From a phage, in sequence record PZ738962.1: 64,000 bases of DNA; one strand, written 5' to 3'. Positions 14,646 to 63,005 of this stretch are shown here, in pieces. Position 1 is the first letter of the stretch. Every line of letters begins with the position of its first letter. The position numbers and the translations under genes were made by a program. Below the pieces are notes generated by a model that was not told the origin of the DNA, ran no database searches, and saw nothing but the letters and a program-made list of their open reading frames with translations.

Positions 14646-14674
14646 ATGTTACTACTCCCTTAATCCGGTGTCAA
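14646..14674 (-). promoter_or_regulatory. PeSL-type early promoter (TTGACA-N17-TAACAT) with GGGAGTA/TACTCCC stem-loop
   Basis: minus-strand TTGACA, 17-bp spacer, -10-like hexamer; inverted repeat spans spacer and -10; drives 13853..14611. Confidence 0.55.
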
Positions 14675-14685
14675 CTACTTTTAAA

Positions 14686-14985
14686 TTATTTTCGCCATTC
14701 ACCGGAAACAATAAAGTTTGTAAAGTGATCGTGGTCCATGATAACGTCATTAAGTACCATATGTGGATACACTTTAGTGATAATTTTACTAAGTACCATA
14801 TGCGGATATGCTTTAGTGTAATCACGTTTACGATCAGTCATCCAGTCAACGAAAGTTGGTGCAAAGTACGGTACACCGTCAGACGATGCCATATTAAACC
14901 CTTTATCAACCATAAATGCAGCCGCCCTAAGATTTTTAATTGAAGTAGTGCGACTAATTTCAAAAACTTTATCGGTAAAATTCAT
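14686..14985 (-). CDS. hypothetical protein (99 aa from ATG) containing an internal 39-bp tandem repeat
   Basis: ATG at 14985; contains KAYPHMVLS...KVYPHMVLN repeat encoded by imperfect direct repeat 14751..14822. Confidence 0.45.
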   Translation of the reverse strand: MNFTDKVFEISRTTSIKNLRAAAFMVDKGFNMASSDGVPYFAPTFVDWMTDRKRDYTKAYPHMVLSKIITKVYPHMVLNDVIMDHDHFTNFIVSGEWRK

Positions 14986-14986
14986 T

Positions 14987-15196
14987 TTAAGCCCCCGCTC
15001 GTGCATTAATACGCATTTTCTGTATAGCCATGATCTGGTTTACTGCTTCTTCTTTACGTTCTTGCGTGATAATGTGACCAGATTCCGCAAACTCTCCAGC
15101 AACTTCTTCTACGATCTCGCGAACTTGAGAACGTCCAAAGATGCGGTTTCCTTCGTAGCTCATAAACTCTGTTACTACTTGCTCGATAGATTTCAT
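14987..15196 (-). CDS. hypothetical small protein (69 aa)
   Basis: ATG preceded by GGAGAATCAC leader of a PeSL cassette. Confidence 0.55.
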   Translation of the reverse strand: MKSIEQVVTEFMSYEGNRIFGRSQVREIVEEVAGEFAESGHIITQERKEEAVNQIMAIQKMRINARAGA

Positions 15197-15225
15197 GTGA
15201 TTCTCCTTTCGTTTGGTATGGGAGT

Positions 15226-15254
15226 ATGTTACTACTCCCTTATCTTTACGTCAA
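15226..15254 (-). promoter_or_regulatory. PeSL-type early promoter (TTGACG-N17-TAACAT) with GGGAGTA/TACTCCC stem-loop
   Basis: same architecture and near-identical sequence as copy at 14646; drives 14987..15196. Confidence 0.55.
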
Positions 15255-15261
15255 CTAGTTT

Positions 15262-15504
15262 TTAGAAATTTTTCGCTTCTTCTTCGGTCATCATCACCGC
15301 GCATTCGTGCATAACTTTGAAAACCGGGTCAATCATATCGAATGCTTCGCTGGACAGTTTACGAGAAGCGATTTTGATTGCTTCAACGTCTTCTACTACA
15401 GGAACAAAAACAGTTTTCAGTTCGTCGAGCACGGCAGCTTCTTTTTCATTCAGGAAGATCCCAGCGTCGTACAGTGCAACTTCGATAACATTAACTTTAA
15501 CCAT
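15262..15504 (-). CDS. hypothetical small acidic protein (80 aa from ATG)
   Basis: ATG at 15504 preceded by GGAGGAAATAAAA; longer track ORF would run through the promoter. Confidence 0.5.
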   Translation of the reverse strand: MVKVNVIEVALYDAGIFLNEKEAAVLDELKTVFVPVVEDVEAIKIASRKLSSEAFDMIDPVFKVMHECAVMMTEEEAKNF

Positions 15505-15538
15505 TTTTATTTCCTCCAGTTCGTTTCGGTATGGGAGT

Positions 15539-15567
15539 ATAATACTACCGATGACCTTTGGCGTCAA
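15539..15567 (-). promoter_or_regulatory. PeSL-type early promoter (TTGACG-N17-TATTAT), degenerate stem-loop
   Basis: TTGACG, 17-bp spacer, TATTAT; conserved leader ACTCCCATACC...GGAGG; drives 15262..15504. Confidence 0.5.
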
Positions 15568-15769
15568 CTGCTTTTTTATTATTTTCGTGAAAATTTTTCG
15601 TCGCCTCATGTGCTTTTCGCTGGGCTTCTTGTTGTGCTTGCTGGCGTGCTGCCTCTTGTGAAGCCATAACGGAAGCATTTGCAGCAGTTACAGCCGCTAC
15701 CATCGCTGCGGTATTAGCATTTACAGTACATGCACTAGCCAGCAAAGCAATTGCAATCATTTTCTTCAT
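15545..15769 (-). CDS. small secreted or lipoprotein-like protein (74 aa)
   Basis: N-terminal signal-like MKKMIAIALLASACT then Ala/Gln-rich low-complexity region; ATG with AAGGGGAAAC upstream. Confidence 0.45.
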   Translation of the reverse strand: MKKMIAIALLASACTVNANTAAMVAAVTAANASVMASQEAARQQAQQEAQRKAHEATKNFHENNKKAVDAKGHR

Positions 15770-15936
15770 AGTTTCCCCTTTAGGTTATCTTCGACCTTCA
15801 CCCATTCCGCGTATTCTTGCGCGGCTACTTTCGGATTTAGTCCGTCTTCGTACATTGCTTCAAGTAATTCTTCGTCGGTGGGCTTATACCCTAGATAAGC
15901 CTTCACCTGATTTTTCCAAATTTTATACCAGTTCAT
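15766..15936 (-). CDS. hypothetical small protein (56 aa from ATG)
   Basis: ATG at 15936 immediately after upstream stop (TGATAATATG). Confidence 0.4.
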   Translation of the reverse strand: MNWYKIWKNQVKAYLGYKPTDEELLEAMYEDGLNPKVAAQEYAEWVKVEDNLKGKL

Positions 15937-15940
15937 ATTA

Positions 15941-16213
15941 TCACCAGTCAAGAGCGCGTGTCTCTGCGTCTTCCCATGCTTGATCCATAACAGCCTTGAA
16001 AACATATTCTAAAGTATCATCTTTAGAGAATCCGAAGACCTTAGACGGAATATCTTCAATTGCTACTCCCGCGACTTCTGCATTACGCGCTTGGCAATAA
16101 TGCAACTCTAAGTTATCGAGATAGCGACCGCCTAATTTCTCCATATCATCCCAGCATTTCCAGTAACCTACTTTATTTGCAATCGCTAACACCTTGCTGT
16201 TTTCGTTGTTCAT
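15941..16213 (-). CDS. hypothetical protein (90 aa from ATG)
   Basis: ATG at 16213 preceded by GGAGAATCAAAG leader. Confidence 0.5.
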   Translation of the reverse strand: MNNENSKVLAIANKVGYWKCWDDMEKLGGRYLDNLELHYCQARNAEVAGVAIEDIPSKVFGFSKDDTLEYVFKAVMDQAWEDAETRALDW

Positions 16214-16244
16214 CTTTGATTCTCCTTTTGTTTGGTATGTGTGT

Positions 16245-16273
16245 ATTATGCAATGATGGATTTGTGAAGTCAA
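16245..16273 (-). promoter_or_regulatory. PeSL-type early promoter (TTGACT-N17-CATAAT)
   Basis: TTGACT, 17-bp spacer, CATAAT, conserved ACACACATACCAAAC...GGAGAATCA leader; drives 15941..16213. Confidence 0.55.
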
Positions 16274-16280
16274 CAACTTT

Positions 16281-16314
16281 TTAAAATAAAAAAGCCGACC
16301 ACACGGATCGGCTT
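16281..16314 (-). terminator. intrinsic terminator (minus strand) after gene 16324..16719
   Basis: hairpin AAGCCGATCC-GTGT-GGTCGGCTT followed by U-run on minus strand; near-identical to the plus-strand terminator at 6335. Confidence 0.6.
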
Positions 16315-16323
16315 AATAATCAG

Positions 16324-19316: not shown

Positions 19317-20309
19317 TTAGTAATGGCTAAAACCTTCGGTCACATCTTCAACCACATAGTAACGATGACAGCGCATTTTGGCATTTGCATAATCTTTCGG
19401 GATACTTACAACGTGACGCGGATCAACTTTGCATTTAATGATTCGGCCTCGTCCACCGCCATAGTGCGGAATATAGTGTTTCGCTGCAACGTGGAGGCCA
19501 TTAGAGCAAGTGCGATCATCATCTGGGTCCACGTCTTTACGCTTCATTTTAACCGTGCGACCTGGGCTATTATCAAACGTATGCGTAAAGAAATCTTTAT
19601 AATCAACATCAACACGTTTCCATGCATAGAAACAACCATCTTCCACGATCTCAATGTCGTTGTGCTCTAAGAAGTCAAATAGACGATCTACGGCCTTACG
19701 GCTAGGGTTTTTCTTGCACTTCTCAAAGAAGTTCAGATAGTGCGTATATGGCTTATTCTCTTTAATCGACTCCACAACTCGACGAGTCAGATTATTATCA
19801 AGAACAATATTATGATAATACACAATACCATTTTCGATACGGAAAGCGCCGTGATAATATACTTCAACCGCTTTCTTAATGTCAATCAGCGTAATTGCTT
19901 TAATAAAATCATTCTGCTTAATTGCTTCCAGTGCTTCATTAAAGTTAACATGTGATGGATCAGCAGTATAAACAATGTCACCACATGTAATAGTAATAAA
20001 CTTAGTTGAGGCTATGGCTACGATTTTTGAGGAAGTAGTCACGGGCTTTTTTGCGCGTTCACCGCCTTTTCCTTTACTGGTTTTACGGCGTGCTTTACGT
20101 TTTTCTAGTGCCTTGCGACCTTCCGCTACTGCGTCTTTCTGAATCAGTAATACACGGGAGGCAGTACGACGAGATACCCCAAATGCTGCCGCAAGTGCTT
20201 CGCGGGTAGTAAACTTACCTTCGCCCCACTGTTTAGCCAGTTTGATTTGTTTTTCAGAATCCAGGCATTGAACGTTACGGTCAGAGACGGTGATTTTTGC
20301 TTTAGTCAT
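19317..20309 (-). CDS. rIIB: rIIB protein
   Basis: strong similarity to T4 rIIB as recalled (DRLFDFLEHNDIEIVEDGCFYAWK, TFDNSPG, CSNGLHV, VDPRHVVSIP); N-terminal HTH; start at ATG 20309 (AGAGGA upstream). Confidence 0.9.
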   Translation of the reverse strand: MTKAKITVSDRNVQCLDSEKQIKLAKQWGEGKFTTREALAAAFGVSRRTASRVLLIQKDAVAEGRKALEKRKARRKTSKGKGGERAKKPVTTSSKIVAIASTKFITITCGDIVYTADPSHVNFNEALEAIKQNDFIKAITLIDIKKAVEVYYHGAFRIENGIVYYHNIVLDNNLTRRVVESIKENKPYTHYLNFFEKCKKNPSRKAVDRLFDFLEHNDIEIVEDGCFYAWKRVDVDYKDFFTHTFDNSPGRTVKMKRKDVDPDDDRTCSNGLHVAAKHYIPHYGGGRGRIIKCKVDPRHVVSIPKDYANAKMRCHRYYVVEDVTEGFSHY

Positions 20310-20371
20310 AGTATTCATTCCTCTATTAGTTGGGCGACTATCGCCGCCCGATTCACATCATTATACCAGAA

Positions 20372-20503
20372 TTATTTTGCTTCTACAACCTTGCGGATTG
20401 TGCGGTCTGATACATTATAGATTCGTGCCAGTTCGCCTTTAGTCAAGCCGCGAGCGTATTGTTTACGGATGGTTTCTTTCTGGATAGCGGTCAGTTTAGT
20501 CAT
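20372..20503 (-). CDS. small HTH protein (43 aa) resembling the rIIB N-terminal region
   Basis: MTKLTAIQKETIRKQYARGLTKGELARIYNVSDRTIRKVVEAK; AAGAGGTG SD; below track length cutoff; HTH pattern parallels rIIB residues about 20-55. Confidence 0.5.
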   Translation of the reverse strand: MTKLTAIQKETIRKQYARGLTKGELARIYNVSDRTIRKVVEAK

Positions 20504-23101: not shown

Positions 23102-23288
23102 TTTGATTCTCCTTTGTTACTAGATAACGAATTTGGTCTTGTATTGCGATCAGTTCCCAGCGTGCTACTTTCATCATGGAAACTGACTCTTTGAACATAA
23201 TATTAGCTTTTTCCTTCTCCCCTGTCAAGTAGAGTTCTGCAATTTTTTCACAAAATTTTTGAGTTTCTTCATTCTTAAACGGTTTCAT
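23094..23288 (-). CDS. hypothetical small protein (64 aa from ATG)
   Basis: ATG at 23288 downstream of PeSL promoter; track start at 23297 is TTG. Confidence 0.45.
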   Translation of the reverse strand: MKPFKNEETQKFCEKIAELYLTGEKEKANIMFKESVSMMKVARWELIAIQDQIRYLVTKENQNA

Positions 23289-23318
23289 ATAAGTCAACCT
23301 TTTGTTTTCGATGGGGAC

Positions 23319-23347
23319 ATTATGATATATCCCCGATCCAGTGTCAA
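23319..23347 (-). promoter_or_regulatory. PeSL-type early promoter (TTGACA-N17-CATAAT) with GGGGA.../...TCCCC stem-loop
   Basis: TTGACA, 17-bp spacer, CATAAT; inverted repeat GGGGATATATCATAATGTCCCC. Confidence 0.55.
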
Positions 23348-23354
23348 CAGATTT

Positions 23355-23654
23355 TTAATCTTTTTTCAGTGCATCCATTACTCGCTCTGCGATCAGTTCT
23401 CGTAAGCACTGATAACCATGATATTTGATGGCAATGTCACGCAGATCATTAACCAGTTCCCGTACTTCATGGTCTTTCAGATCGTCTCTGTATTTCGATT
23501 TAACCGTGTCTTTAGGTGGATTGTGGATAACCTGAAAACCTTGTTCTGCAATCACTGCGGCTTCTCGCTGGCGTTCATGCTGTACTGTATTTTTGATCAG
23601 GTCTGCTTCCATGAACTTTGCCATACTCATCATCATGTTATTCTTTTTGCTCAT
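23355..23654 (-). CDS. hypothetical protein (99 aa)
   Basis: ATG with GAGGATTTAATA upstream. Confidence 0.5.
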   Translation of the reverse strand: MSKKNNMMMSMAKFMEADLIKNTVQHERQREAAVIAEQGFQVIHNPPKDTVKSKYRDDLKDHEVRELVNDLRDIAIKYHGYQCLRELIAERVMDALKKD

Positions 23655-23686
23655 TATTAAATCCTCATAAAAGAAAGGGAGACTCC

Positions 23687-23715
23687 CATTATAGAGAATC
23701 TCCCTTGTATGTCAA
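23687..23715 (-). promoter_or_regulatory. PeSL-type early promoter (TTGACA-N17-ATAATG) with GGGAGA.../...TCTCCC stem-loop
   Basis: overlaps the stop of gene 39; inverted repeat GGGAGATTCTCTATAATGGGAGTCTCCC. Confidence 0.5.
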
Positions 23716-23718
23716 GTG

Positions 23719-25542
23719 TTATGATTGCATCCAAATTTTGCGTTGATCTGCATCTTCACTATAGAGCAAATCGAATAGCTCTTTATAGTTTTCCGGTAAC
23801 GTGATGATTTCCATTACAGGATCGTTGATCACGCGATGATAATCTGATTCTGTAAGCGATGCTAACCCTTTGATATATCGAATGTTGTAACCTTTGATAT
23901 TATCGCGATCGTTCTCGAAATCTTCTAGGTCATAATACCATCGAACATCATCACCTTTCTTTGGTTCAGCAATGATAATAGGTGTTTTGATAAACCGGAT
24001 TCGTCCATCTTCGAACAATTCAGGCCAACGAGCAAAGAAAGAGATCAGACTAGGTTTAATAGACCCGATGCCGTCAGTATCAGCGTCAGTCATAATCGCA
24101 ATATTTTTGTATTGCATAACTTCCAGCGCATCAACACCAAATTGCAAACCAGTGATCGCCATGATGTTAAAAATTTCGGCGTTCTTAACGATCTTTGCCT
24201 CCGGTTGTTCCCACGTTGTAAGAGTTTTGCCTCGCAACGGGAAACCTCCATGTAAATCTTGATCACGTACAGAGATCAGATAGTTGATCGCGGAATCACC
24301 TTCCGTCAAAAACAGGGTAGTTTCTGCGTCAGTTCCAATAAGGTTAGCTTTAACGTGTTTTGCCACCTTAGCCCGTTTCGCTGCCTTTGCTGCCTTAGTC
24401 GCTGCCGCTTTATCTGCTGCCTCTTTGCGTGCCAGGACTACAGCAATAATAGGCATGATAATGTTTTCTTTCTTAGCAATGACTTTAGCCAGCTTTTTAA
24501 AATCAAGATCAATATGACGCTTGATATCACCAGTTGGATTAGTCAATCGTTCTTTTGTCTGTGAATCAAAACGAAGGTTAGGCAATTCACGAACAATCAA
24601 AATACAGGTCAATCCAGACTTAACCGCAGCTTTAGTAACATCAACCTTATATTCTTTCTTGATTCGTTTTACAATCTCTTCACAAAGATCATCTGTCACG
24701 TAGTCTACGTGTGTTCCCCCGTTTTTGGTAAACAGACCATTAGCAAATGATACTGATTTAAAACCTTCACCTTCAACCGCAGGAACTAGGGCAAGTGAAA
24801 AGTTTTTATCTTCAATGACAAACGGATCATCATTGTATAGTTTAGCATAATCCTTGAACTTACTAACAATACGTTTACCATTAAACTTAAACGTGATCTT
24901 AGGAAAGATTACGCTCAATGATTGCAGACGATCATGAACAATATCTAAAACAGAGTTGTCCATCATATAACCTTCGAAGTGGTCGAAGTCTGGACAAAAT
25001 GTAACCTTCGTTCCCTTCAATTTTGATGGTTTTGATGACCATGTGATATTTTCAGCCCCGTTTGTGCATTGAACGGTCATTTCTGTTTCACCGTCACAGG
25101 TCACACCAGTAAACCAATCGCTAAAGAAATTTGACAACGACGACCCCACACCGTTCATCCCTTGCGTTAATCGATTGGTATCATCAAAGTTAGACCCTGC
25201 TTTTGTTCGTGTCCATGCGGCCACAGGTTGCGGAATCTGCGTACCCTCTGGGGTAGTAACCATATGTTGAGGAATACCGCGACCGTTGTCTGTTACCGTA
25301 ACAATATTGTTTTGGATATCGACGCTAATCACATTGGCAAATTCAAAATTAGTGCGAATCGCCTCGTCTACAGAGTTGTCGATGATCTCATCAATGATTT
25401 TAACCAGTCCTGGAACATATGAAATTTTTGTCCATTTACCGAACAGGAAACGTTGATGTTCTTCGTAAGTTGTTGATCCTATATACATTCCTGCACGCTT
25501 AAGGACATGTTCACGATCAGATAAAATGCGAAACTCACTCAT
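23719..25542 (-). CDS. 39: DNA topoisomerase II large subunit (GyrB-like; gp39 with gp60-equivalent region fused)
   Basis: 607 aa; GyrB ATPase and TOPRIM-like motifs; single uninterrupted ORF. Confidence 0.9.
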   Translation of the reverse strand: MSEFRILSDREHVLKRAGMYIGSTTYEEHQRFLFGKWTKISYVPGLVKIIDEIIDNSVDEAIRTNFEFANVISVDIQNNIVTVTDNGRGIPQHMVTTPEGTQIPQPVAAWTRTKAGSNFDDTNRLTQGMNGVGSSLSNFFSDWFTGVTCDGETEMTVQCTNGAENITWSSKPSKLKGTKVTFCPDFDHFEGYMMDNSVLDIVHDRLQSLSVIFPKITFKFNGKRIVSKFKDYAKLYNDDPFVIEDKNFSLALVPAVEGEGFKSVSFANGLFTKNGGTHVDYVTDDLCEEIVKRIKKEYKVDVTKAAVKSGLTCILIVRELPNLRFDSQTKERLTNPTGDIKRHIDLDFKKLAKVIAKKENIIMPIIAVVLARKEAADKAAATKAAKAAKRAKVAKHVKANLIGTDAETTLFLTEGDSAINYLISVRDQDLHGGFPLRGKTLTTWEQPEAKIVKNAEIFNIMAITGLQFGVDALEVMQYKNIAIMTDADTDGIGSIKPSLISFFARWPELFEDGRIRFIKTPIIIAEPKKGDDVRWYYDLEDFENDRDNIKGYNIRYIKGLASLTESDYHRVINDPVMEIITLPENYKELFDLLYSEDADQRKIWMQS

Positions 25543-29367: not shown

Positions 29368-29396
29368 AATTGATTCTCCTTAGTTGGTATGTGTGT

Positions 29397-29425
29397 ATTA
29401 TTGTCTATCTGGTTTGTCCTGTCAA
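29397..29425 (-). promoter_or_regulatory. PeSL-type early promoter (TTGACA-N17-AATAAT)
   Basis: conserved leader ACACACATACCAAC...GGAGAATCA; drives 28612..29367. Confidence 0.5.
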
Positions 29426-29428
29426 CAC

Positions 29429-29932: not shown

Positions 29933-29965
29933 AATAAAAAAGCCTCCAATCTTTCGACGGGAGGC

Positions 29966-29994
29966 ATAATAAAACCATTATAGAGTAGTGTCAA
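29966..29994 (-). promoter_or_regulatory. early promoter (TTGACA-N17-TATTAT) with downstream leader hairpin
   Basis: TTGACA, 17 bp, TATTAT; GCCTCC...GGAGGC hairpin in leader; drives the mod gene. Confidence 0.5.
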
Positions 29995-53096: not shown

Positions 53097-53239
53097 TATT
53101 CAATTACCCCGAACTCGTTTACAATCTGCGCTTTATAGTAACCACCGCGAGATGCTAATAGATAAGCTGGGCTTAGGTATTCGTATTCACGGATTTCTAC
53201 TTGTGCGTTTTCAGTTTCCCAAATCAGTAAAGTCCACAT
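53087..53239 (-). CDS. hypothetical small protein (50 aa from ATG)
   Basis: ATG at 53239 preceded by GGAGAATCAAAT leader downstream of PeSL promoter; track ORF start would lie upstream of the promoter. Confidence 0.4.
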   Translation of the reverse strand: MWTLLIWETENAQVEIREYEYLSPAYLLASRGGYYKAQIVNEFGVIEYEF

Positions 53240-53281
53240 ATTTGATTCTCCTGTAAAGTTGTATCTCGTCTTGATGAATAT

Positions 53282-53310
53282 AGTATAGGGGATCTCGCGA
53301 TCCCCGTCAA
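53282..53310 (-). promoter_or_regulatory. PeSL-type early promoter (TTGACG-N17-TATACT) with GGGGATC.../...GATCCCC stem-loop
   Basis: inverted repeat GGGGATCGCGAGATCCCC within spacer. Confidence 0.55.
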
Positions 53311-53314
53311 GCAT

Positions 53315-53842
53315 TTATTTTAAATTTTTTCGAATGTAGTCAGACCATTCCTTCCCTGTCAGTTCGGTCCCATTCTGGAAACTGAAATATTCATACGGCA
53401 TCGAGTCAAGATAAAACAGGATCATACATCGCGCCATATAATACCAATCACGATTAAAGTAAACTACGTTATCGCCAGTACCATCAGCACCTTTATCATA
53501 ACCATCGCGGGTACGGGCGACCCATTGAATAGTATCAGTTTTCTCACGGATCGTAACAGGTTCCCAATATCCAGCACATCCAGCATGACCACACGAACAA
53601 GTAAGGAAATATTGTCCTTTTGCTTTGTTGTCATCCCATTCACGATGGATTGGTTCGATCTCGTGAAACAGTGCTAAGCAATCATGATTATGCAACACTG
53701 GCTTACCATCAATCAATGCATGGAATGTATACAAACGACCAGTAGACAAATAGTTATCTTCTCGCTCTACAAGTTCAATAGCAATCTTTTTAGCTCGTTC
53801 TTTGTGTCGTTGTGCTTTACGCTTACGGTTTAATGATTTCAT
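53315..53842 (-). CDS. hypothetical Cys-rich protein (175 aa from ATG)
   Basis: ATG at 53842 with GTGTGAGGTG upstream; basic N-terminus; CSCGHAGCAGYWE cluster. Confidence 0.5.
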   Translation of the reverse strand: MKSLNRKRKAQRHKERAKKIAIELVEREDNYLSTGRLYTFHALIDGKPVLHNHDCLALFHEIEPIHREWDDNKAKGQYFLTCSCGHAGCAGYWEPVTIREKTDTIQWVARTRDGYDKGADGTGDNVVYFNRDWYYMARCMILFYLDSMPYEYFSFQNGTELTGKEWSDYIRKNLK

Positions 53843-53859: not shown

Positions 53860-54399
53860 TCAAAGGTCGCGATATAGTACATTATGAAAATGAGAACTTG
53901 CATTACCAATATTGTAGATAATAAATTCTTCATCCGGCGCTTGCGCTACAAATTGAGTATGAGCAACCGCCACAACCTTAAAAATACGATCCGTGATCTT
54001 GTGTTTAATTTCTGCCCCTACTTCCATAGGAACATATTCATTTGTTTCTGTTTCAGTCGCAAAACAGCCATCTTCTTCATAAGCACGAACAAATCGATCG
54101 CAATCAGTACGCTTAACAAATTCAAGAGTATACAATTCTCGTGAATTGTCGGTATAGACCAATACAGAATTATTATGATAGCGAATCACATACAGGTTAT
54201 TATCATCGTCAATTACGCAAAAGCTACGGATTCCTTCGCCTTGACTCCAACAGATATTAACCACCGTTCCTCTAATAAAAAAACTTTCCTTTAAATTAAA
54301 ACTAGTCAATGTGCTAGCGTGCATTTTAACAACAACACCATCGCCAATTTCCAGTTTACGAAGTTTAACTTCTTTGTTCAGTACACAAAACATCATCAT
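53860..54399 (-). CDS. hypothetical protein (179 aa)
   Basis: ATG with ACGAGAGGACAAC upstream. Confidence 0.55.
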   Translation of the reverse strand: MMMFCVLNKEVKLRKLEIGDGVVVKMHASTLTSFNLKESFFIRGTVVNICWSQGEGIRSFCVIDDDNNLYVIRYHNNSVLVYTDNSRELYTLEFVKRTDCDRFVRAYEEDGCFATETETNEYVPMEVGAEIKHKITDRIFKVVAVAHTQFVAQAPDEEFIIYNIGNASSHFHNVLYRDL

Positions 54400-54428
54400 G
54401 TTGTCCTCTCGTTGTTTTCGATGTGAGC

Positions 54429-54456
54429 ATTATACATTAGCTAATCATGTTGTCAA
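54429..54456 (-). promoter_or_regulatory. sigma70-type early promoter (TTGACA-N16-TATAAT)
   Basis: consensus hexamers; drives 53860..54399. Confidence 0.55.
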
Positions 54457-54460
54457 CACC

Positions 54461-54494
54461 CCAAAACGAAAAAGCCGACCCTTTCGGATCGGCT
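54461..54494 (-). terminator. intrinsic terminator (minus strand) after nrdD
   Basis: hairpin AGCCGATCCGAAAGGGTCGGCT followed by UUUUCGUUUU on minus strand; same stem family as 6335 and 16292. Confidence 0.6.
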
Positions 54495-54499
54495 GAAAT

Positions 54500-56406: not shown

Positions 56407-56901
56407 TTATTTTACCAGTTCTGCTAATTCTTTTTCTTTAGCTTCTAGTTCAGCTTTAAGCTGTTTAATCTCTTGTCGCTTCTTATTAGCGGCTTCCTGC
56501 TTACTATTTCGGATAACCTGATCTAGATACAACTCCCAATCCTGAATATTTTTGATAATGTATCCGTCAACATTAATTGGTCGGAGATTCAGTACAGCTT
56601 CCAGTTTAGTCGCAAAAACTTTAATTGCTGGCGTGAAGTATTCATATTCGTTATCTTCAAACCAATAACCTAGACTTGCATTATCAATACGAAGACGAAG
56701 TTCAAGATCAAGGTCTTTATCTTCGGTGTAAAGATCTTTCACCTGACCCAGCGAACTAACAACAACTTTAAAACGAATTTTATCTACACCACCAAACACA
56801 TCAGTAAGTATACCAGCAATTGAGCTATTAGCGCAAGATTGGTCGCTGAATGCGTCAAGGTTTTCTTTAGTTACAGTATACCAAACATCTTGTACCCACA
56901 T
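56407..56901 (-). CDS. hypothetical protein with C-terminal coiled coil (164 aa)
   Basis: ATG with GAGAGGATTATATT upstream. Confidence 0.55.
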   Translation of the reverse strand: MWVQDVWYTVTKENLDAFSDQSCANSSIAGILTDVFGGVDKIRFKVVVSSLGQVKDLYTEDKDLDLELRLRIDNASLGYWFEDNEYEYFTPAIKVFATKLEAVLNLRPINVDGYIIKNIQDWELYLDQVIRNSKQEAANKKRQEIKQLKAELEAKEKELAELVK

Positions 56902-56931
56902 AATATAATCCTCTCGTTGTTAAGTGGGAGT

Positions 56932-56959
56932 ATTATAGCATACTCCCTTCGCATGTCAA
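56932..56959 (-). promoter_or_regulatory. PeSL-type early promoter (TTGACA-N16-TATAAT) with GGGAGTA/TACTCCC stem-loop
   Basis: inverted repeat GGGAGTATGCTATAATACTCCC. Confidence 0.55.
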
Positions 56960-58134
56960 GCACTAACTTTTTTCTTTACTGCTTTCACCTTCTGGCGAAT
57001 TGCTCGAATCTCTTCGATCTCTTTTTCAGTCTCTTTAACAATTTCTTTGCGATTCTGAATATCTGTATCTAGATTATCATCAAGTTTAGGCAGCATGTCA
57101 ATCAAGAACTTTTTAAAGTCTTTCAGGTTTCGGATAACAGCACCTTCACCCATTACCGCCACGCCTACACCATCCGGCAGATCACCAAACAGCTTAACCA
57201 GTTCAGACAGATGATCATGATCTTCTAGTGCTTCTTCCGGTTCAGATGGCAGTTCAACAAAGTTATAACGTTCATCATTGCTGATCAAGTGATACCAGCA
57301 AAGACCGAAAGATTTCGGTGTATATTCTACACCATCAATTTCAACCGCGTCAACACTTCCATAATCATCTACTTTAGTTACCTTAAATCCTTGTCCCAGC
57401 TTTTGAACAATTTCAACAACATGACTTGATACAGTTTCAGCGGTAAACCAATATGGCAAATTATGCTGATTTGGTTTGTAGCGTTCACCTACTTTAAATC
57501 TCTGACCATCCGCTTGCATAGAATGAAATTGTTGTTTCGTGATTTCCGCGAAGTATTCAAATTCGCTACCGTCAAACAAGCAATTCCATTGATCACAAAA
57601 ACGGTCCGCCTTGACGGTTTCACCTTTCGCGGTGATCATGGTAGCTGATCCGTGCAATTCTTCTTCAACTAAAAAGCCATATTCGACAAAATCAACAAGT
57701 TTCATGGCTTCTTTGTGCTCTGGGTCATGCTCTCCCCAGAATCGCTTAAATTCTTGCAAACCTTCTGGGGTAAACGAATAACATTTACCTTTTTCAAAGT
57801 AAGTCGGCATTGCATCCTCTTTCTTGTTCATCGCTTCGTATGCCTCTTTTGAGATACGTTTAAAGTATTTGCGCTCATTGTGCATAATCATAGTAGACCA
57901 ATAATAAACGATATCCTCAGCGGAATAAACTACATCTCCAGCTTCAATAGTAATAACATGACCGTGGTCATCTTTTTCTAATACTTTAAAGCCCTTTTCT
58001 ACGATTTCAGCAACCCGAATATGACCACGGCGCGAAGCATCGGTCAGAATAATTGAATAGCGAGAAAAGTCTAGAAACTCATCTTTACCGCCTTCACGGA
58101 ATGCATAGTAATGACCTTCAAAGAATTTAGCCAT
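56956..58134 (-). CDS. paralog-family protein A5 (392 aa, multiple copies of the module)
   Basis: repeated x-IDG/IEAG...ERKYF-like modules (NERKYFKRISKEAYEAM, DERYNFVEL) plus coiled-coil tail. Confidence 0.55.
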   Translation of the reverse strand: MAKFFEGHYYAFREGGKDEFLDFSRYSIILTDASRRGHIRVAEIVEKGFKVLEKDDHGHVITIEAGDVVYSAEDIVYYWSTMIMHNERKYFKRISKEAYEAMNKKEDAMPTYFEKGKCYSFTPEGLQEFKRFWGEHDPEHKEAMKLVDFVEYGFLVEEELHGSATMITAKGETVKADRFCDQWNCLFDGSEFEYFAEITKQQFHSMQADGQRFKVGERYKPNQHNLPYWFTAETVSSHVVEIVQKLGQGFKVTKVDDYGSVDAVEIDGVEYTPKSFGLCWYHLISNDERYNFVELPSEPEEALEDHDHLSELVKLFGDLPDGVGVAVMGEGAVIRNLKDFKKFLIDMLPKLDDNLDTDIQNRKEIVKETEKEIEEIRAIRQKVKAVKKKVSA

Positions 58135-58165
58135 AATATAATCCTCTCGTTGTTTAGATGGGAGT

Positions 58166-58194
58166 ATCTTACTACTCCCGTTTCATCATGTCAA
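58166..58194 (-). promoter_or_regulatory. PeSL-type early promoter (TTGACA-N17-TAAGAT) with GGGAGTA/TACTCCC stem-loop
   Basis: near-identical to copies at 14646 and 15226. Confidence 0.5.
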
Positions 58195-58757
58195 GCGTTA
58201 AATGACTTTTGGATCTCTTTCAGTTCAGCTACTTTATCTGCGCTGAATTTAGCGTAGGTATCATGTCGAATAATTTCACTTTCAAGAAAGGTTTCCAGCC
58301 GAGATCTATTTTCAATAAGGAACTCTTTCAGGTCTTCTGCGTTCTTGATAAAGATTTTATTGTCGGTAATGTCATCTTCAATCGCAAAGGAGATAGAGCG
58401 AACTTTACCAAACAAGTTAATCAGATCTTCCAGAGATTCTTCTTTCTTAACTGGTTTCATTTCTTCAAACTGCTTTTTAGTGATGCGTTTAAAGTATTTG
58501 CGCTCGCTTGCATCAATCATGATTGACGCACCCTCATAATCATGAGTTTCTACCAAATACACTTTACCCATAACATTAACCGTAAGAACTTTAAAGCCCC
58601 TGTGAAGCACACCATACAGGAACTTGTTATGTTGTGGGTAGCGTTTAACAAATTCCTCTGCGGACTCAGCATTACGGAAAGTGTAATAACGACCTCGTTC
58701 AAAAACAGCATCAGTTGAAGACTTAGCCGGATACAATTTATACGTTTTCTGTACCAT
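58191..58757 (-). CDS. paralog-family protein A6
   Basis: start at ATG 58757 with AGAGGATTATATT upstream; SERKYFKRITKKQFEEM motif. Confidence 0.55.
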   Translation of the reverse strand: MVQKTYKLYPAKSSTDAVFERGRYYTFRNAESAEEFVKRYPQHNKFLYGVLHRGFKVLTVNVMGKVYLVETHDYEGASIMIDASERKYFKRITKKQFEEMKPVKKEESLEDLINLFGKVRSISFAIEDDITDNKIFIKNAEDLKEFLIENRSRLETFLESEIIRHDTYAKFSADKVAELKEIQKSFNA

Positions 58758-58771: not shown

Positions 58772-59044
58772 TCATTTCACTAATTGAACAGCACGGAACA
58801 GAATGCGCTCACACGGAAGCAGCATAAATTCCCAACGCGGATCAAAGTCTTTAGCGGTGTATGTTTTCCCATCAACCGAGATTTCACTTACATAACCAAC
58901 AGGTGACACTTTAAGAACAGTAAACCCATTCTTGATGACTTCGTAGGTATCTTTCACCCCTTCGTATTCATCATCTAAGAAGTCTTTATGTGCTTGCTCA
59001 GATTTAAAAACATAGGCAACACCGGATTTAAACATCTTACGCAT
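58772..59044 (-). CDS. paralog-family protein A7 (90 aa from ATG)
   Basis: start at ATG 59044 after GGAGAATCAACA leader; ISVDGKTYTAKDF motif. Confidence 0.5.
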   Translation of the reverse strand: MRKMFKSGVAYVFKSEQAHKDFLDDEYEGVKDTYEVIKNGFTVLKVSPVGYVSEISVDGKTYTAKDFDPRWEFMLLPCERILFRAVQLVK

Positions 59045-59075
59045 TGTTGATTCTCCTTCTTGATTAGATGGGAGT

Positions 59076-59104
59076 ATTTTACTACTCCCATTTCTTATTG
59101 TCAA
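59076..59104 (-). promoter_or_regulatory. PeSL-type early promoter (TTGACA-N17-TAAAAT) with GGGAGTA/TACTCCC stem-loop
   Basis: same cassette as 58166; directly after gene 49 stop. Confidence 0.5.
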
Positions 59105-59107
59105 CTA

Positions 59108-59581
59108 CTATCTTAATCTTTGTATGAATTGTTTCTTATACTTCTTCGTGATCTCTTCTCTTGTATCAGCGTCACAATAATCGAAACCTTCTGCGTCCAT
59201 AATAGCAACCATCTCCGCGCGTGTCAAGCGTGAAAATCGTTTTACTTTATCAACAGCATATTGAGGATGTAAATGATTGTTGGTGTAGTCTCCTTTGATG
59301 TAATTAACATAGTTTGTAGCCCAAACAACGAAATCAGCACCTAAAGCACCAACACCAAACCGTTTAAAGTCTCCGGTCAACGATCCTTCTAGGCGGTTGC
59401 AACACGAATGAAGCAATCCCCTTACGCGGCCTTGCCCTTTCCCATCTAGATCGTGGTCGTGGTCAAGATGGTTTTTGCTCATATCCTCAAAAAGTGGCAA
59501 TTGACAAAGGGGGCAAATGCCCCCCTGTTTTTCGAATAGTTCTTGTTTGTACTCTTTAGCACTCTTAGCAGTCAGTAACAT
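59108..59581 (-). CDS. 49: endonuclease VII (Holliday junction resolvase) gp49
   Basis: strong similarity to T4 endo VII as recalled (MLLT-KxxKE, HLDHDH, GxVRGLL, CNxxEG, FSRL, KKQ); start at ATG 59581 with GGAGGGTG upstream. Confidence 0.9.
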   Translation of the reverse strand: MLLTAKSAKEYKQELFEKQGGICPLCQLPLFEDMSKNHLDHDHDLDGKGQGRVRGLLHSCCNRLEGSLTGDFKRFGVGALGADFVVWATNYVNYIKGDYTNNHLHPQYAVDKVKRFSRLTRAEMVAIMDAEGFDYCDADTREEITKKYKKQFIQRLR

Positions 59582-61143: not shown

Positions 61144-61150
61144 ATAATCC

Positions 61151-61444
61151 TCATATCTCAGAGAATAGAATCTCTGTTAATCGTACTGACTGCTCTCTGA
61201 ATGTTAGCGTATACTCGAAAGGAAAGTCAACACCCAACTTCAAAAGAGAATAGCCTACCGCCTCTTTATGCTTGTCTGTTAGGGCAATCCTAACCAATTC
61301 CCGTTGAATCTCTTTAGGCGGTGAATGGATAGTAACACGGGTATCATGTAATGTCCAGTCACCATTTCGAATTAAGATTAACGGTTTATCATCATTGAAG
61401 ATCACCGACCCCTTTCCGGTCGGTGAGTGTTTTATATTAATCAT
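61151..61444 (-). CDS. hypothetical protein (97 aa from ATG)
   Basis: ATG at 61444; track start is TTG. Confidence 0.45.
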   Translation of the reverse strand: MINIKHSPTGKGSVIFNDDKPLILIRNGDWTLHDTRVTIHSPPKEIQRELVRIALTDKHKEAVGYSLLKLGVDFPFEYTLTFREQSVRLTEILFSEI

Positions 61445-61658
61445 CAAATTCTAAGAAATATTCTGGAACGATATAACCGTTAAAGTCATTGCACTTATAA
61501 AAGTGTGGTGCATTTAATGCTGGATGAGCATTAGTAAAGAGTTTACCCTCTAGAAACAGAATGTAATTAATAGGTCTAATACCTACAGAATCAGGGTCTA
61601 AACCTTTTTCTTTCAGTTCAGCCAGCGTTAAAACTCGTCCAGATCGTAACTTAGCCAT
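61437..61658 (-). CDS. hypothetical protein (73 aa)
   Basis: ATG; overlaps neighbours. Confidence 0.45.
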   Translation of the reverse strand: MAKLRSGRVLTLAELKEKGLDPDSVGIRPINYILFLEGKLFTNAHPALNAPHFYKCNDFNGYIVPEYFLEFDD

Positions 61659-61944
61659 GATTTACCCCTAATTCATCAAGATTATGTCGCAGCATTTCAG
61701 AGTATTTTTCTACTTCCTTGATCTTAGTGTGGATCTCCACGATCTCATCTTCACTATCAGATAGTTTAATGGCAATAGCGAGCGTGCTTTTACCAGCTTT
61801 CATAGTCTCTTTCCGTTCAACCAATAGATCCGCGTGTTTCAATAGCAATTCTTCACGTCGAACATAAGCGACGGTCAAAGCCTCATCAGCGATTTCTAAA
61901 GCATTTTCAGCGACACCAACAACCATTTTACGAGTAGACAGCAT
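61651..61944 (-). CDS. hypothetical protein (97 aa)
   Basis: ATG with AGGTGAATTT upstream. Confidence 0.5.
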   Translation of the reverse strand: MLSTRKMVVGVAENALEIADEALTVAYVRREELLLKHADLLVERKETMKAGKSTLAIAIKLSDSEDEIVEIHTKIKEVEKYSEMLRHNLDELGVNHG

Positions 61945-61958
61945 AAATTCACCTCACA

Positions 61959-62267
61959 TTATTTCACGTTAACGCCGTTATCAATCCAGCCGACGCTATT
62001 TGGTTTAACAGTTTTACCATAGGATGCATACTTAATCAAGCATGGTTTAACATCATTATCAAATCTTCCTAAACGTACTCCCAAATCAGGAATATCCATG
62101 TATGCGGCTTTATATCCCCATGTACCGTATTCAGAATCAATCTCAACCGGACGGCCTTTAAAAGCATACACTACACCGTGACGGTCAACGATAACATAGC
62201 GATAGCCAGCCGGAAGATACACAGTTTCGCCGTAAACTTTAACTGGAGTAGCAGAAGAGATAAACAT
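61959..62267 (-). CDS. hypothetical protein (102 aa from ATG)
   Basis: ATG at 62267 with GAGGATTATATT upstream, downstream of consensus promoter. Confidence 0.5.
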   Translation of the reverse strand: MFISSATPVKVYGETVYLPAGYRYVIVDRHGVVYAFKGRPVEIDSEYGTWGYKAAYMDIPDLGVRLGRFDNDVKPCLIKYASYGKTVKPNSVGWIDNGVNVK

Positions 62268-62301
62268 AATATAATCCTCACATCGTTCATTTGATGCGGT
62301 C

Positions 62302-62330
62302 ATTATATGATAACCGCATTTTCATGTCAA
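62302..62330 (-). promoter_or_regulatory. PeSL-type early promoter (TTGACA-N17-TATAAT) with GCGGT.../...ACCGC stem-loop
   Basis: consensus hexamers; inverted repeat GCGGTTATCATATAATGACCGC. Confidence 0.6.
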
Positions 62331-62336
62331 CAGTTT

Positions 62337-62645
62337 TTAAAAATCTTCTTCCGGTTTATATCGACCGTCATCGACTGGTTTTGGACTGAATCCTTTATGC
62401 GTGCGCGGCTTCGCTTCCGGTTTACCAGCAATCATCAAACCAAAACATTTCAGCCCCTTATAACACATAACAATATCAACCACGGTCCACGTTATAGGCC
62501 AGACGATTGCAGCAATACAAAATGCTCCTGTATCGACCTCTTTGGTGTCCTTGTCGAATCTGGCATACAAGCAGAATACTAGATACGAGATCATTGCACC
62601 AGTAATCCAGATATAAAGTACATTAACAATATCTTGTGTTGTCAA
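62337..62645 (-). CDS. small two-helix membrane protein (102 aa, TTG start)
   Basis: TAAGGAGG 5 nt upstream of TTG at 62645, immediately after upstream stop; two hydrophobic segments. Confidence 0.45.
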   Translation of the reverse strand: MTTQDIVNVLYIWITGAMISYLVFCLYARFDKDTKEVDTGAFCIAAIVWPITWTVVDIVMCYKGLKCFGLMIAGKPEAKPRTHKGFSPKPVDDGRYKPEEDF

Positions 62646-62655
62646 ATTGTCCTCC

Positions 62656-62934
62656 TTACATGTCTTGCAGTGCATAAAAGCATTTTTCTTCGTAGTCATA
62701 GAAAATGTCAAAGTATGCTTTTTCTACATACTCGCCATTGATCCAAGCGGCAGTAACAATCAGAGTGGTCCAGGTAGATCCGCTCTCAACGGTAAAGGTT
62801 TTAATACCCAGCTTCGCTGCCAAGTCGAACGCAAACCGGACGCAACCACGACAGGAAGTGATGTTGGAAGTTTTGATTTTAAAGCCACCGCGAGTTTTAG
62901 AAATTTCTACTTTAGCGAAAGACAGGTTGCTCAT
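62656..62934 (-). CDS. hypothetical protein (92 aa from ATG)
   Basis: ATG at 62934 after GGAGAATCAAA leader of PeSL cassette. Confidence 0.5.
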   Translation of the reverse strand: MSNLSFAKVEISKTRGGFKIKTSNITSCRGCVRFAFDLAAKLGIKTFTVESGSTWTTLIVTAAWINGEYVEKAYFDIFYDYEEKCFYALQDM

Positions 62935-62976
62935 TTTGATTCTCCTTAAGAAAGTGTGTTTCGTTTTGATGTGTGT

Positions 62977-63005
62977 AGTATAGGGGATCACCGATCCCCT
63001 GTCAA
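62977..63005 (-). promoter_or_regulatory. PeSL-type early promoter (TTGACA-N17-TATACT) with GGGGATC.../...GATCCCC stem-loop
   Basis: inverted repeat GGGGATCGGTGATCCCC; near-duplicate of 53282 copy. Confidence 0.55.

Follow-up and report, generated by a model that had tools for sequence, protein, structure and literature searches.

What are the promoter-like elements with hairpins that recur along one strand of this phage DNA, and does the hairpin act in RNA or in DNA? In the window (the whole 64,000-nt stretch analysed, from record PZ738962.1), 17 strong sigma70-type promoter-hairpin elements and a weaker one lie on the minus strand, from 63005 down to 14646 (Table 1). A composite element was taken as TTGACN, a 16-17 nt spacer and a -10, plus a stable hairpin, and is named by the start of its -35. 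The total bears out a preliminary description of at least 18 copies, whose end points are exact: 63005 is the -35 of the first copy and 14646 the end of the -10 of the last. Their excess over chance is confirmed. The minus strand has 54 TTGACN-16..18-TAnnnT sites and the plus strand 8, versus 7.7 ± 3.0 (maximum 18) in 200 dinucleotide shuffles; 10 of them have a hairpin (perfect stem of at least 6 bp), against 0.41 (maximum 2) in shuffles, a ~25-fold excess. Fold z-scores of the hairpins range from -1.8 to -5.5, and the two hairpin-less controls score higher (15567 and 29425; Table 1).

The window belongs to an RB49-like coliphage of the genus Krischvirus and represents its early-gene region. 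Megablast matched it to 59 Krischvirus records at 95-99% identity, with 99% for Delraymugoa and 96-97% for RB49 and phi1. For the sites orthologous to 39044, 36315 and 41071, the RB49 GenBank record annotates a 'hypothetical early promoter', and for the last of them both an early and a late promoter. By sequence, the elements are the PeSLs (promoter-early stem-loops) already published for RB49 and phi1 (Arbiol et al. 2010, Genome Biol Evol 2:140; PMC2839356). The loci are orthologous within the same genus, and the features match the published definition one by one (PMC2839356, PMC4122927): an AT-rich tract with a stop, a promoter very close to TTGACA-N16/17-TATAAT, a stem-loop with G-run and C-run arms at any of five places, an SD and ATG, a preference for small unknown ORFs, and indels between close relatives at the elements. 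Gene 43 has PeSLs on both sides in the published phages (PMC2839356), and here the flanking pair is 39044 and 36315. The earlier identification as PeSLs was therefore correct, and the finding is not new. The differences from RB49 and phi1 are non-essential: the window phage has its own cassette complement, with ORF66+ORF80 and ORF106 present, the ORF51 cassette absent and a degenerate copy at 15567.

The PeSLs and PmSLs of T4/PST and KVP40/nt-1 (Comeau et al. 2014; PMC4122927) are likewise composite promoter-terminator motifs that adjoin differential ORFs in T4-like hyperplastic regions. Their promoters differ (TTTACW..TAYWAT; TTGYVH..TAWWAT; Mot-box variants), as do their stems (AGNA..TCNT; A3-4G3..C3T3-4), and they are analogues, not sequence homologues, of the copies in the window.

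PeSLs compactly punctuate the gaps between genes of the leftward early transcription unit. From 5' to 3' each consists of an A/T-rich tract, in which the upstream gene usually has its stop codon, a predicted host sigma70 promoter near consensus, a G/C-rich hairpin of 7-13 bp in one of five positions relative to the promoter, and a short leader with a strong Shine-Dalgarno and an ATG; the genes that follow are often small and uncharacterised. The 20 nt upstream are 72% A+T (60% in random 20-mers), the tract AAAA(G/C)T(A/T)G recurs among elements, and every hairpin starts 5-36 nt past the upstream stop codon. Three hairpins lie in the spacer, eight over the -10, one over the -35 and spacer, two upstream of the -35 (54456, 16273) and four downstream of the -10 (41071, 36315, 29994, 20388). 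An inverted repeat across spacer and -10, previously ascribed to each copy, is thus found in 11-12 of the 18 and not in the remainder.

The four arm pairs described beforehand are all found in the window: GGGAGTA/TACTCCC in 59104, 58194, 56959, 15254 and 14674, GGGGATC/GATCCCC in 63005 and 53310, GGGAGA../..TCTCCC in 23715, and GCGGT/ACCGC in 62330. The five identical -10-overlap stems (GGGAGTA/TACTCCC) by themselves carry no information on structure. A conserved leader had also been proposed, and this describes a subset of elements only. The exact leader ACACACATACCAAAC occurs once (three copies at ≤2 mismatches), GGAGAATCA lies downstream of six elements, and three are followed by an SD of another type, GAGGATTATATTATG.

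Table 1. Promoter-hairpin elements and related promoters of the window, all on the minus strand (elements named by -35 start; positions are those of the window)
Element	Span	-35	-10	Hairpin	ATG	Fold z	Remarks
63005	62932..63025	TTGACA 63005-63000	TATACT 62982-62977	in spacer; AGGGGATC-ggt-GATCCCCT 63000-62982	62934	-1.84	leader contains AAGGAGAATCA
62330	62265..62350	62330-62325	TATAAT 62307-62302	over -10; ATGCGGTTAT..ATGACCGCAT 62319-62294	62267	-3.54	-10 within loop and 3' arm
59104	59042..59124		TAAAAT 59081-59076	over -10; ATGGGAGTA-gtaaaa-TACTCCCAT 59091-59068	59044	-3.82	
58194	58132..58214		TAAGAT	over -10; GGGAGTA..TACTCCC 58179-58160	58134		TGA of -35 is stop codon of upstream ORF
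56959	56899..56979		TATAAT 56937-56932	over -10; GGGAGTAT..ATACTCCC 56947-56926	56901		16-nt spacer; -35 provides TGA stop for upstream ORF
54456	54397..54499	TTGACA	TATAAT 54434-54429	upstream of -35; AGCCGATCC-gaaa-GGGTCGGCT + T-run, 54494-54473	54399		intrinsic terminator by sequence
53310	53237..53330	TTGACG	TATACT 53287-53282	in spacer; GGGGATC-gcga-GATCCCC 53305-53288	53239		GGAGAATCA
45862	45806..45882	TTGACG	TATACT 45839-45834	in spacer; GCGGGGA-gaaa-TCCCCGT 45857-45840	45808		
41071	40980..41091	TTGACT	TATAAT 41048-41043	downstream of -10; GGGGAGTAT-aaa-ATACTCCCC 41036-41016, then GTTTTAAT	40982		upstream of gene 44
39044	38981..39064		TATAAT 39021-39016	encloses -35; ATAGGGG.ATTGAC..GTCGAT.CCCCTAT 39053-39019	38983	-4.17	upstream of gene 43
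36315	36241..36335	TTGACA	TATAAT 36293-36288	downstream of -10; TGGCGGGTGTTG..CGATACCCGCCA 36288-36260	36243	-5.52	directly after gene 43
29994	29930..30014	TTGACA	TATTAT 29971-29966	downstream of -10; GCCTCC..GGAGGC 29965-29942 + T-run	29932		hairpin 3' arm doubles as SD of modB-like gene
23715	23652..23735	TTGACA	TATAAT	-10 in loop; 13 bp, AAGGGAGATTCTC-TATAAT-GGGAGTCTCCCTT 23706-23675, then TTCTTTTAT	23654	-5.01	
23347	23286..23367	TTGACA	CATAAT 23324-23319	over -10; GGGGATAT-atcata-ATGTCCCC 23334-23313	23288	-1.90	
20388 (weaker)	20307..20395	TTGTAG 20388-20383	extended, TGgTATAAT 20365-20360	downstream of -10; GGGCGGC-gata-GTCGCCC 20349-20332	20309	-3.62	17-nt spacer; upstream of rIIB
16273	16211..16320	TTGACT	CATAAT 16250-16245	upstream of -35; AAGCCGATC..GGTCGGCTT + T-run, 16314-16292	16213		terminator-like; leader ACACACATACCAAACAAAAGGAGAATCA
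15254	15194..15274	TTGACG	TAACAT 15231-15226	over -10; GGGAGTA-gtaaca-TACTCCC 15239-15220	15196		GGAGAATCA
14674	14609..14694	TTGACA	TAACAT 14651-14646	over -10; GGGAGTA-gtaaca-TACTCCC 14659-14640	14611		
15567 (degenerate)	15502..15587	TTGACG	TATTAT	3' arm TACTCCC retained; 5' arm swapped for ATCGGTA		-1.35	
29425 (related early promoter)	29365..29445	TTGACA	AATAAT	none	29367	+0.61	PeSL-type leader ACACACATACCAACTAAGGAGAATCA

Comparison with RB49, phi1, kaaroe, SSG23, TB34 and Delraymugoa confirms cassette gain and loss in the 14.6-16.3 kb region, exactly at PeSLs 14674, 15254 and 16273, as expected from the suggestion that small ORFs are exchanged there. RB49, phi1, SSG23 and TB34 have a GGGGATC-PeSL+ORF51 cassette in place of 14687..14994, with the breakpoint at PeSL 14674 at position 14687. 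A 503-bp segment, 15276-15778 (ORF66, PeSL 15567 and ORF80), is missing in RB49, phi1 and TB34, and its junction falls in the A/T tract that forms the 5' part of PeSL 15254 (breakpoint 15275). SSG23 has an additional ORF68 cassette at PeSL 16273, flanked by a 38-bp leader duplicate. The mapped breakpoints fall outside the stem, in A/T-rich sequence immediately 5' of the -35. In 14-64 kb, larger indel loci are as often away from PeSLs as at them; those away from PeSLs are HNH endonuclease insertions (30514, 31563, 46885) and a variable stretch (26534-26772).

Could the elements instead be independent promoters and terminators or stabiliser hairpins, packed together by genome compaction, with no cassette at all? 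The copies would then resemble each other only through shared sigma70 and SD consensus, and the indels would stem from ordinary recombination and homing endonucleases. The hairpins fall into five positional classes and have no fewer than 12 distinct stem sequences, which fits this proposal, as do the HNH insertions distant from PeSLs, the stand-alone terminators in gaps at 56406, 46978, 34972 and 18975, and the lack of a hairpin at many of the 54 sigma70-like sites on the same strand; nor was a single structure fitting all copies found on the promoter-anchored alignment of the elements. However, the similarity exceeds functional consensus. Leaders of the form ACTCCC/ACACACATACC(A/G)AAC..GGAGAATCA are common to 15254, 16273, 29425 and 15567, a 20-nt hairpin core is identical in five copies, and the recurrent upstream tract is shared as well. 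The PeSL-leader duplicate borders the SSG23 insertion, the 503-bp segment has its ends in A/T tracts of PeSLs, the joint excess of hairpin and promoter over shuffles is large, and mini-circles with a chimeric PeSL have been detected experimentally (PMC2839356). We regard mere packing as very improbable.

The stems are shown to be kept paired by selection on the sense strand. Orthologues carry seven stem changes of the Watson-Crick to G.U type on that strand, one double compensatory change (A-T to G-C, at 39044 in SSG23) and no A.C-type transitions. Six changes disrupt pairing; four of these are at the ends of helices and two are internal (kaaroe at 45862; Makalu_001 at 56959). The substitution rate is 9.6% for unpaired positions of the hairpins, 2.4% for the stems and 2.7% for the flanks. 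The suggested selection on pairing is thus seen among orthologues. Column-wise covariation among paralogues is weak (61-64% of cells pair in the promoter-anchored alignment, versus 55-58% in shuffles) and no single structure fits, since there are three or more registers among the stems.

The preliminary description had suggested, with caution, that the hairpin may work as DNA, since it lies upstream of its own promoter's start; this position holds for 12 of the 18 copies and not for the others. The inverted repeat, in or beside the promoter, might extrude as a cruciform or hairpin and modulate sigma70 promoter use, or a recombination protein (endonuclease VII gp49, SbcCD-like gp46/47 or an unknown DNA-binding protein) might bind or cut there and so initiate the exchange of cassettes. 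Genes 46, 47 and 49 are all encoded in the window, the stems are recurrently rich in G-runs and C-runs, and indel junctions adjoin PeSLs. Yet a palindrome or cruciform in double-stranded DNA should be strand-symmetric, whereas the sense strand folds more stably in 15 of the 18 hairpins (mean -14.5 versus -12.2 kcal/mol antisense, on average 2.3 kcal/mol better; Wilcoxon p=0.0014). Each of the seven stem polymorphisms that affect one side only gives a G.T-type pair on the sense strand, where the opposite strand would have an A.C mismatch, and the mapped junctions miss the stem. Most stems are only 7-9 bp, which is short for cruciform extrusion at physiological supercoiling, and they vary in sequence and register, which argues against one sequence-specific protein site. 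Action at the DNA level therefore seems unlikely. Sense-strand folding, G.U-type variants and a hairpin just past the stop together favour an RNA hairpin in read-through transcripts.

The hairpin shares features with intrinsic (Rho-independent) terminators. It is G/C-rich, directly follows a stop and commonly has a GNRA loop (in the sense orientation, GAAA in three and GCGA in one), and a T-rich tail is also present at 54456, 16273, 29994, 23715 and 41071. Unlike such terminators, 10 of the 18 (the spacer and -10-overlap types, 23715 excepted) have no T-run and overlap the spacer or -10 of the next promoter, so that these hairpins do not resemble the canonical kind. The published reading of the PeSL hairpin is a terminator or attenuator. 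Promoter and terminator activity are reported from lacZ tests of PeSL206/205 and PeSL211/210, the published terminator activity being for one SLS only.

The best explanation, to which we assign a probability of about 0.85, is that these are Krischvirus PeSLs that combine a sigma70 promoter with an RNA-acting hairpin, and between which ORF cassettes are exchanged. Like lambdoid morons and integron cassettes, a single ORF moves with its own expression signals, in presence/absence arrays; unlike them, PeSLs have no integrase or attC, the regulatory element itself is the homology for exchange, and the cassettes are co-oriented with neighbouring early genes (PMC2839356). The hairpin would act in transcripts from an upstream promoter, just past the upstream stop, where it may terminate, attenuate or 3'-stabilise the upstream message. 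Each cassette would thereby be transcriptionally insulated, with the next promoter starting afresh. Because ~60-100 nt of similar sequence recurs every few hundred bases, phage homologous recombination could swap, delete and insert the ORFs between.

The elements are the promoter-early stem-loops (PeSLs) of RB49-like phages, as the preliminary description had proposed; every published sequence feature is present, including the gene 43 pair and the AT-rich tract. In RB49 and phi1, about 51-52 such repeated motifs were reported per genome (Arbiol et al. 2010, PMC2839356). Each joins an early promoter of sigma70 consensus to an AT-rich region upstream, a stem-loop that is often polyG/polyC, and the Shine-Dalgarno (SD) sequence and start codon of the gene that follows, and five subclasses are distinguished by stem-loop position (PMC2839356). 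PeSLs favour sites upstream of ORFans in hyperplastic regions, and a pair of them flanks gene 43 in RB49 and phi1 (PMC2839356). Here, gene 43 is bordered by PeSLs 39044 and 36315 (elements are named by the window coordinate at which the minus-strand -35 starts). In the RB49 GenBank record, the sites orthologous to 39044, 36315 and 41071 each carry a ‘hypothetical early promoter’, and several of the hairpins are marked as terminators in other Krischvirus records. Rfam 15 gave no match at gathering score over the entire window on both strands.

The window covers early and hyperplastic regions of an RB49-like, T4-type genome. Megablast of 14000-22000 and 40000-64000 matched 59 GenBank phage records at 95-99% identity, every one from Krischvirus (RB49-like Straboviridae); the closest is Escherichia phage Delraymugoa (99.2%), and RB49 and phi1 stand at about 96-97%. 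Between about 12 and 64 kb, all genes lie on the minus strand. The plus-strand tail-fibre/holin region (8370-12407) is only 84% identical to RB49 and 92-94% to Delraymugoa, compared with 97-99% elsewhere, and this drop suggests that distal tail-fibre genes may have undergone mosaic exchange.

PeSLs by hairpin position, early genes of the window, and PeSL-like composites in other phages
Feature	Location	Strand
Hairpin in spacer (3)	63005, 53310, 45862	minus
Hairpin over -10 (8)	62330, 59104, 58194, 56959, 23715, 23347, 15254, 14674	minus
Hairpin over -35 (1)	39044	minus
Hairpin upstream of -35 (2)	54456, 16273	minus
Hairpin downstream of -10 (4)	41071, 36315, 29994, 20388	minus
Early/replication genes: rIIB, rIIA, 39, dexA, dda, srd, modB, 56, 61, 41, uvsX, 43, regA, 62, 44, 45, rpbA, 46, 47, 55, nrdG, nrdD, 49, dam, and many small ORFs without known function		minus
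PeSL-like composite, L173	133-1010	
PeSL-like composite, L161/L168		
PeSL-like composite, L165		
PeSL-like composite, L141		
PeSL-like composite, L187	283-2470	
PeSL-like composite, L200 (HTVC027P)	19224-19830	

The elements were listed by scanning the minus strand and reading each intergenic gap. Seventeen combine TTGAC(A/G/T), a spacer of 16-17 nt and a -10 matching at 4/6 positions or better with a stable hairpin, and a weaker one, 20388, has a weak -35. The preliminary description had counted at least 18 copies with TTGAC(A/G) and the same spacing, which agrees with the 17 strong elements and the weaker one, except that TTGACT also occurs; its outer coordinates correspond to the -35 of the first copy (63005) and the end of the last -10 (14646). 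The promoters are near the sigma70 consensus (TTGACA, about 17 nt, TATAAT), several agreeing at 11-12 of 12 positions. Sites of the form TTGACN-16..18-TAnnnT number 54 on the minus strand and 8 on the plus strand, compared with 7.7 ± 3.0 in 200 dinucleotide shuffles, and 10 promoter-like sites also bear a perfect hairpin of at least 6 bp (0.41 in shuffles). A generic promoter scan of 44-64 kb placed all but one of the matches at 10/12 or better on the minus strand. In two PeSLs (58191-58194 and 56956-56959), the -35 TTGACA itself provides the TGA stop of the upstream ORF. Many near-consensus sigma70 sites are also predicted inside minus-strand coding sequences between 12000 and 64000 (e.g. 22732, 20774, 59227, 52712 and 57101), and two predicted perfect TTGACA-17-TATAAT sites lie within or adjoining rIIA.

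All five published hairpin positions are represented, and most stems contain G/C runs (absent from 62330, 54456 and 16273). The inverted repeat had been described as spanning spacer and -10; it does involve the spacer, -10 or -35 in 12 copies, but lies upstream of the -35 or downstream of the -10 in the other 6, and every arm pair originally quoted exists in the window. Folding energies of the 18 hairpin regions span -11.9 to -23.7 kcal/mol, with z-scores of -1.8 to -5.5; the hairpin-less controls, degenerate PeSL 15567 and the related promoter 29425, score -1.35 and +0.61. The 20 nt upstream of the elements average 72% A+T, compared with 60% in random 20-mers (top mean 69% in 5000 draws of 19); 54456, 41071, 39044 and 36315 have no AT-rich tract.

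An SD and ATG occur in every copy, 28-63 nt past the -10. The leader, previously presented as a conserved part of each copy, is conserved in subsets only: GGAGAATCA follows six elements, GAGGATTATATTATG follows three, and the exact 15-mer ACACACATACCAAAC is found once. Searching for the exact leader at up to 3 mismatches gave 5 matches where 1.9 are expected, so the leader is not common to all elements. Degenerate PeSL 15567 (15502-15587) keeps the 3' arm TACTCCC and has ATCGGTA where GGGAGTA is expected; its leader carries an extra G (ATACCGAAAC), giving a weak alternative CGGTA/TACCG pairing. The copy has been kept in kaaroe, SSG23 and Delraymugoa, and its appearance suggests recombination or decay.

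Do the hairpins covary, as their structure-preserving variation had been taken to indicate? Among paralogous copies the signal is modest. A promoter-anchored MAFFT alignment of 12 copies has 61-64% of cells paired (55-58% in shuffles), which speaks against one consensus structure, and a covariation score of 0.19-0.22 (0.14-0.16 in shuffles). The stems fall in at least three registers on this alignment, and the analysis therefore moved to orthologues. Within a single register, copies 56959, 23347 and 62330 show double compensatory differences (G-C/C-G, A-T/G-C, G-C/A-T/T-A).

The orthologue counts leave out paralogues (59104 in Delraymugoa and 15254 in Makalu_001) and breaks due to misalignment at T-runs. 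Seven stem changes among distinct orthologue variants exchange a Watson-Crick pair with G.U (two positions in 62330 and one each in 59104, 45862, 41071, 23347 and 14674), whereas none of the transitions creates an A.C mismatch (sign test, about 0.008). One double compensatory change, A-T to G-C, occurs in 39044 of SSG23. Pairing is broken by six changes, four of them at helix ends, and substitution rates are 2.4% for stems, 2.7% for flanks and 9.6% for hairpin positions that do not pair. In RNA folding, mean energies are -14.5 kcal/mol for the sense strand and -12.2 for the antisense; of the 18 hairpins, 15 are stabler as sense and two less stable (Wilcoxon p = 0.0014). Sense folds contain 12 G.U pairs, compared with 6 in antisense, and their loops include three GAAA and one GCGA.

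Because of this strand asymmetry, the orthologue variation and the position of the hairpins after stop codons (the upstream stop lies 5-36 nt before the hairpin, and no hairpin overlaps upstream coding sequence), the hairpin most likely acts as sense-strand RNA in transcripts arriving from upstream. The preliminary description had instead proposed action at the DNA level, on the ground that the hairpin precedes its own start site, and the idea was also raised by Arbiol et al. (PMC2839356). Pairing would then be equally conserved on both strands, which the stabler sense strand contradicts, and neither a cruciform nor a symmetric protein site would tolerate the one-strand G.T represented by the seven G.T-type polymorphisms, to which there is no A.C-type counterpart. 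Together with the placement beyond stop codons, these observations make a DNA-level role unlikely.

An RNA hairpin fits the published terminator/attenuator role on upstream transcription. Promoter activity with host RNA polymerase, stem-loop terminator/attenuator activity and mini-circles were reported from lacZ fusions and PCR for a few RB49 and phi1 elements, with terminator activity in one tested element, PeSL211/210 (PMC2839356). As a class, PeSLs do not have the form of intrinsic terminators (a G/C-rich hairpin, then a U-run): a T-rich tail follows only five hairpins (54456, 16273, 29994, 23715 and 41071), and the remaining spacer and -10-overlapping hairpins are followed by TATACT.. or ATC/ATA.. 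in place of a T-run. A generic scan of 44-64 kb also argued against ordinary intrinsic terminators, its strong minus-strand candidates being only 46969 and 54494. Since most hairpins have no U-tract, the ‘terminator’ label derives from a single tested element, and termination by T-run-less hairpins would be an extrapolation from PeSL211/210; attenuation, pausing or 3'-end protection would be equally possible.

Some individual hairpins have features of their own. In the PeSL of the modB-like ADP-ribosylase (29932-29994), the -10 precedes the hairpin GCCTCC..GGAGGC, which is followed by TTTTTTATT and at once by the ATG. The 3' arm of this hairpin doubles as the SD of the modB-like gene, and translation of the hairpin's own transcript could be attenuated or masked in this way. 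The hairpin of 41071 (41016-41036), downstream of the gene 44 early promoter, has a loop reading TATAAAATA, similar to the T4 late-promoter box TATAAATA; the orthologous site is a ‘hypothetical late promoter’ in the RB49 record, so that early and late promoters are predicted to overlap in one PeSL. Hairpins without an adjoining sigma70 promoter stand in the gaps 56141-56406, 46889-46978, 34918-34972, 18931-18975, 48019-48058 and 33141-33190, and thus not all intergenic hairpins here belong to PeSLs. Some with T-runs are true terminators, e.g. AAGGGAGACTCC-gaaa-GGGGTTTCCCTT (46969-46942).

Comparison of the window with Delraymugoa, RB49, phi1, kaaroe, SSG23, TB34 and Makalu_001 revealed ORF insertions, deletions and replacements between close relatives. 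The region 14.6-16.3 kb is an array of PeSL-ORF units that varies by presence and absence. ORF106 (14687..14994) is swapped for a GGGGATC-type PeSL and ORF51 in RB49, phi1, SSG23 and TB34; ORF66, degenerate PeSL 15567 and ORF80 (15276-15778) are missing from RB49, phi1 and TB34; and SSG23 has an additional ORF68 unit at PeSL 16273, alongside a 38-bp leader duplicate. Cassette-flanked ORFs therefore differ between relatives, as had been put forward for checking. The junction of the 503-bp segment falls within the A/T-rich stop-codon tract directly 5' of the -35 of PeSL 15254, the part of the element to which crossovers were assigned previously (PMC2839356). Three to four of the eight indel loci of at least 100 bp between 14 and 64 kb adjoin PeSLs (14674, 15254 and 16273), which make up about 4% of the DNA; indels are thus enriched at PeSLs, though the enrichment comes from one hyperplastic region.

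Indels away from PeSLs comprise HNH insertions, the stretch 26534-26772 and small in-frame indels. The HNH homing-endonuclease gene ORF040c of RB49 (565 bp) sits at window position 46885-46889, and two such genes of TB34 (about 570-590 bp each) flank the primase gene at 30514-30526 and 31563-31572, none of them associated with a PeSL. The stretches 26534-26772 and 12407-12615 are also variable without a PeSL: phi1, Makalu_001 and Delraymugoa carry one more small ORF near 26724-26772, where the junction shows an overlap of 49 bp, and about 450 bp of RB49, phi1 and Delraymugoa at 12407-12615 is missing from the window.

Similar composites occur in other phages. A first IMG/VR scan with the 3' arm only (14 specified bases) returned chance matches, the 5' arm being present in 2 among the at least 121 matches listed. 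A second required TTGAC, GGGAGTA and TACTCCC together, and informs on distribution with a bias towards the 7 core pairs; it matched 70 loci, in Krischvirus contigs and several low-GC lineages that share the layout and have their own conserved leaders. The flanking extension pairs, the sole unbiased ones, are paired at 0.63/0.70/0.58, compared with 0.39/0.56/0.37 after permutation. Outside Krischvirus, each composite has a TTGACA, a conserved leader with SD and a hairpin in which the spacer pairs with the -10; in some, the stem is the same GGGAGTAT/ATACTCCC. In this biased scan, GGGAGTA(T)...(A)TACTCCC with conserved leader and SD was found in HTVC027P-related contigs and a 366-kb jumbo-phage contig related to Salmonella phage 7t3/Munch.

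The closest cultured phages of both contig groups were found by tblastn and blastn; PHROGs searches on the neighbouring genes recovered terminase and portal but no taxon. Tandem copies in the HTVC027P-related contigs differ in a compensatory manner (TTAATGGGAGTATA/TATACTCCCATTAA versus TCTGGGATTATA/TATAATCCCAGA). In one of them (L173), which has a terminase 71% identical to its counterpart in Pelagibacter podophage HTVC027P, the compensatory differences among three tandem copies reach the -10 itself (TATACT with AGTATA versus TATAAT with ATTATA). In HTVC027P itself, gp36 and gp38 are preceded by TTGACA-N17-TAGGAT promoters whose hairpins overlap the -10, and the jumbo-phage contig (L187) carries two copies with a Krischvirus-like leader. 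A full-text literature search found PeSLs described only in PMC2839356 and PMC4122927, with passing mentions elsewhere, and no extension to pelagiphages or Rak2-like jumbo phages.

That a sigma70 promoter with a hairpin pairing its spacer with the -10/discriminator is a convergent, widespread phage module, and not a T4-like peculiarity, strikes us as unlikely. Should the recurrence be real and independent, mere compaction would not be the whole story, and a so far undescribed mechanistic coupling would be suggested. One possibility is that incoming polymerase would terminate or pause exactly on the next promoter, preventing occlusion or handing the polymerase over.

PeSLs have been known from the same phage genus since 2010, and finding them here adds nothing new in itself. 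For annotation, the elements delimit this genome's cassettes and define its early transcription units, and also account for the difference of the 14.6-16.3 kb region from RB49 and phi1. The strand-asymmetric evidence for selection on RNA (G.U without A.C, and better folding of the sense strand) is relevant to a DNA-binding recombination factor, on which the literature has speculated.
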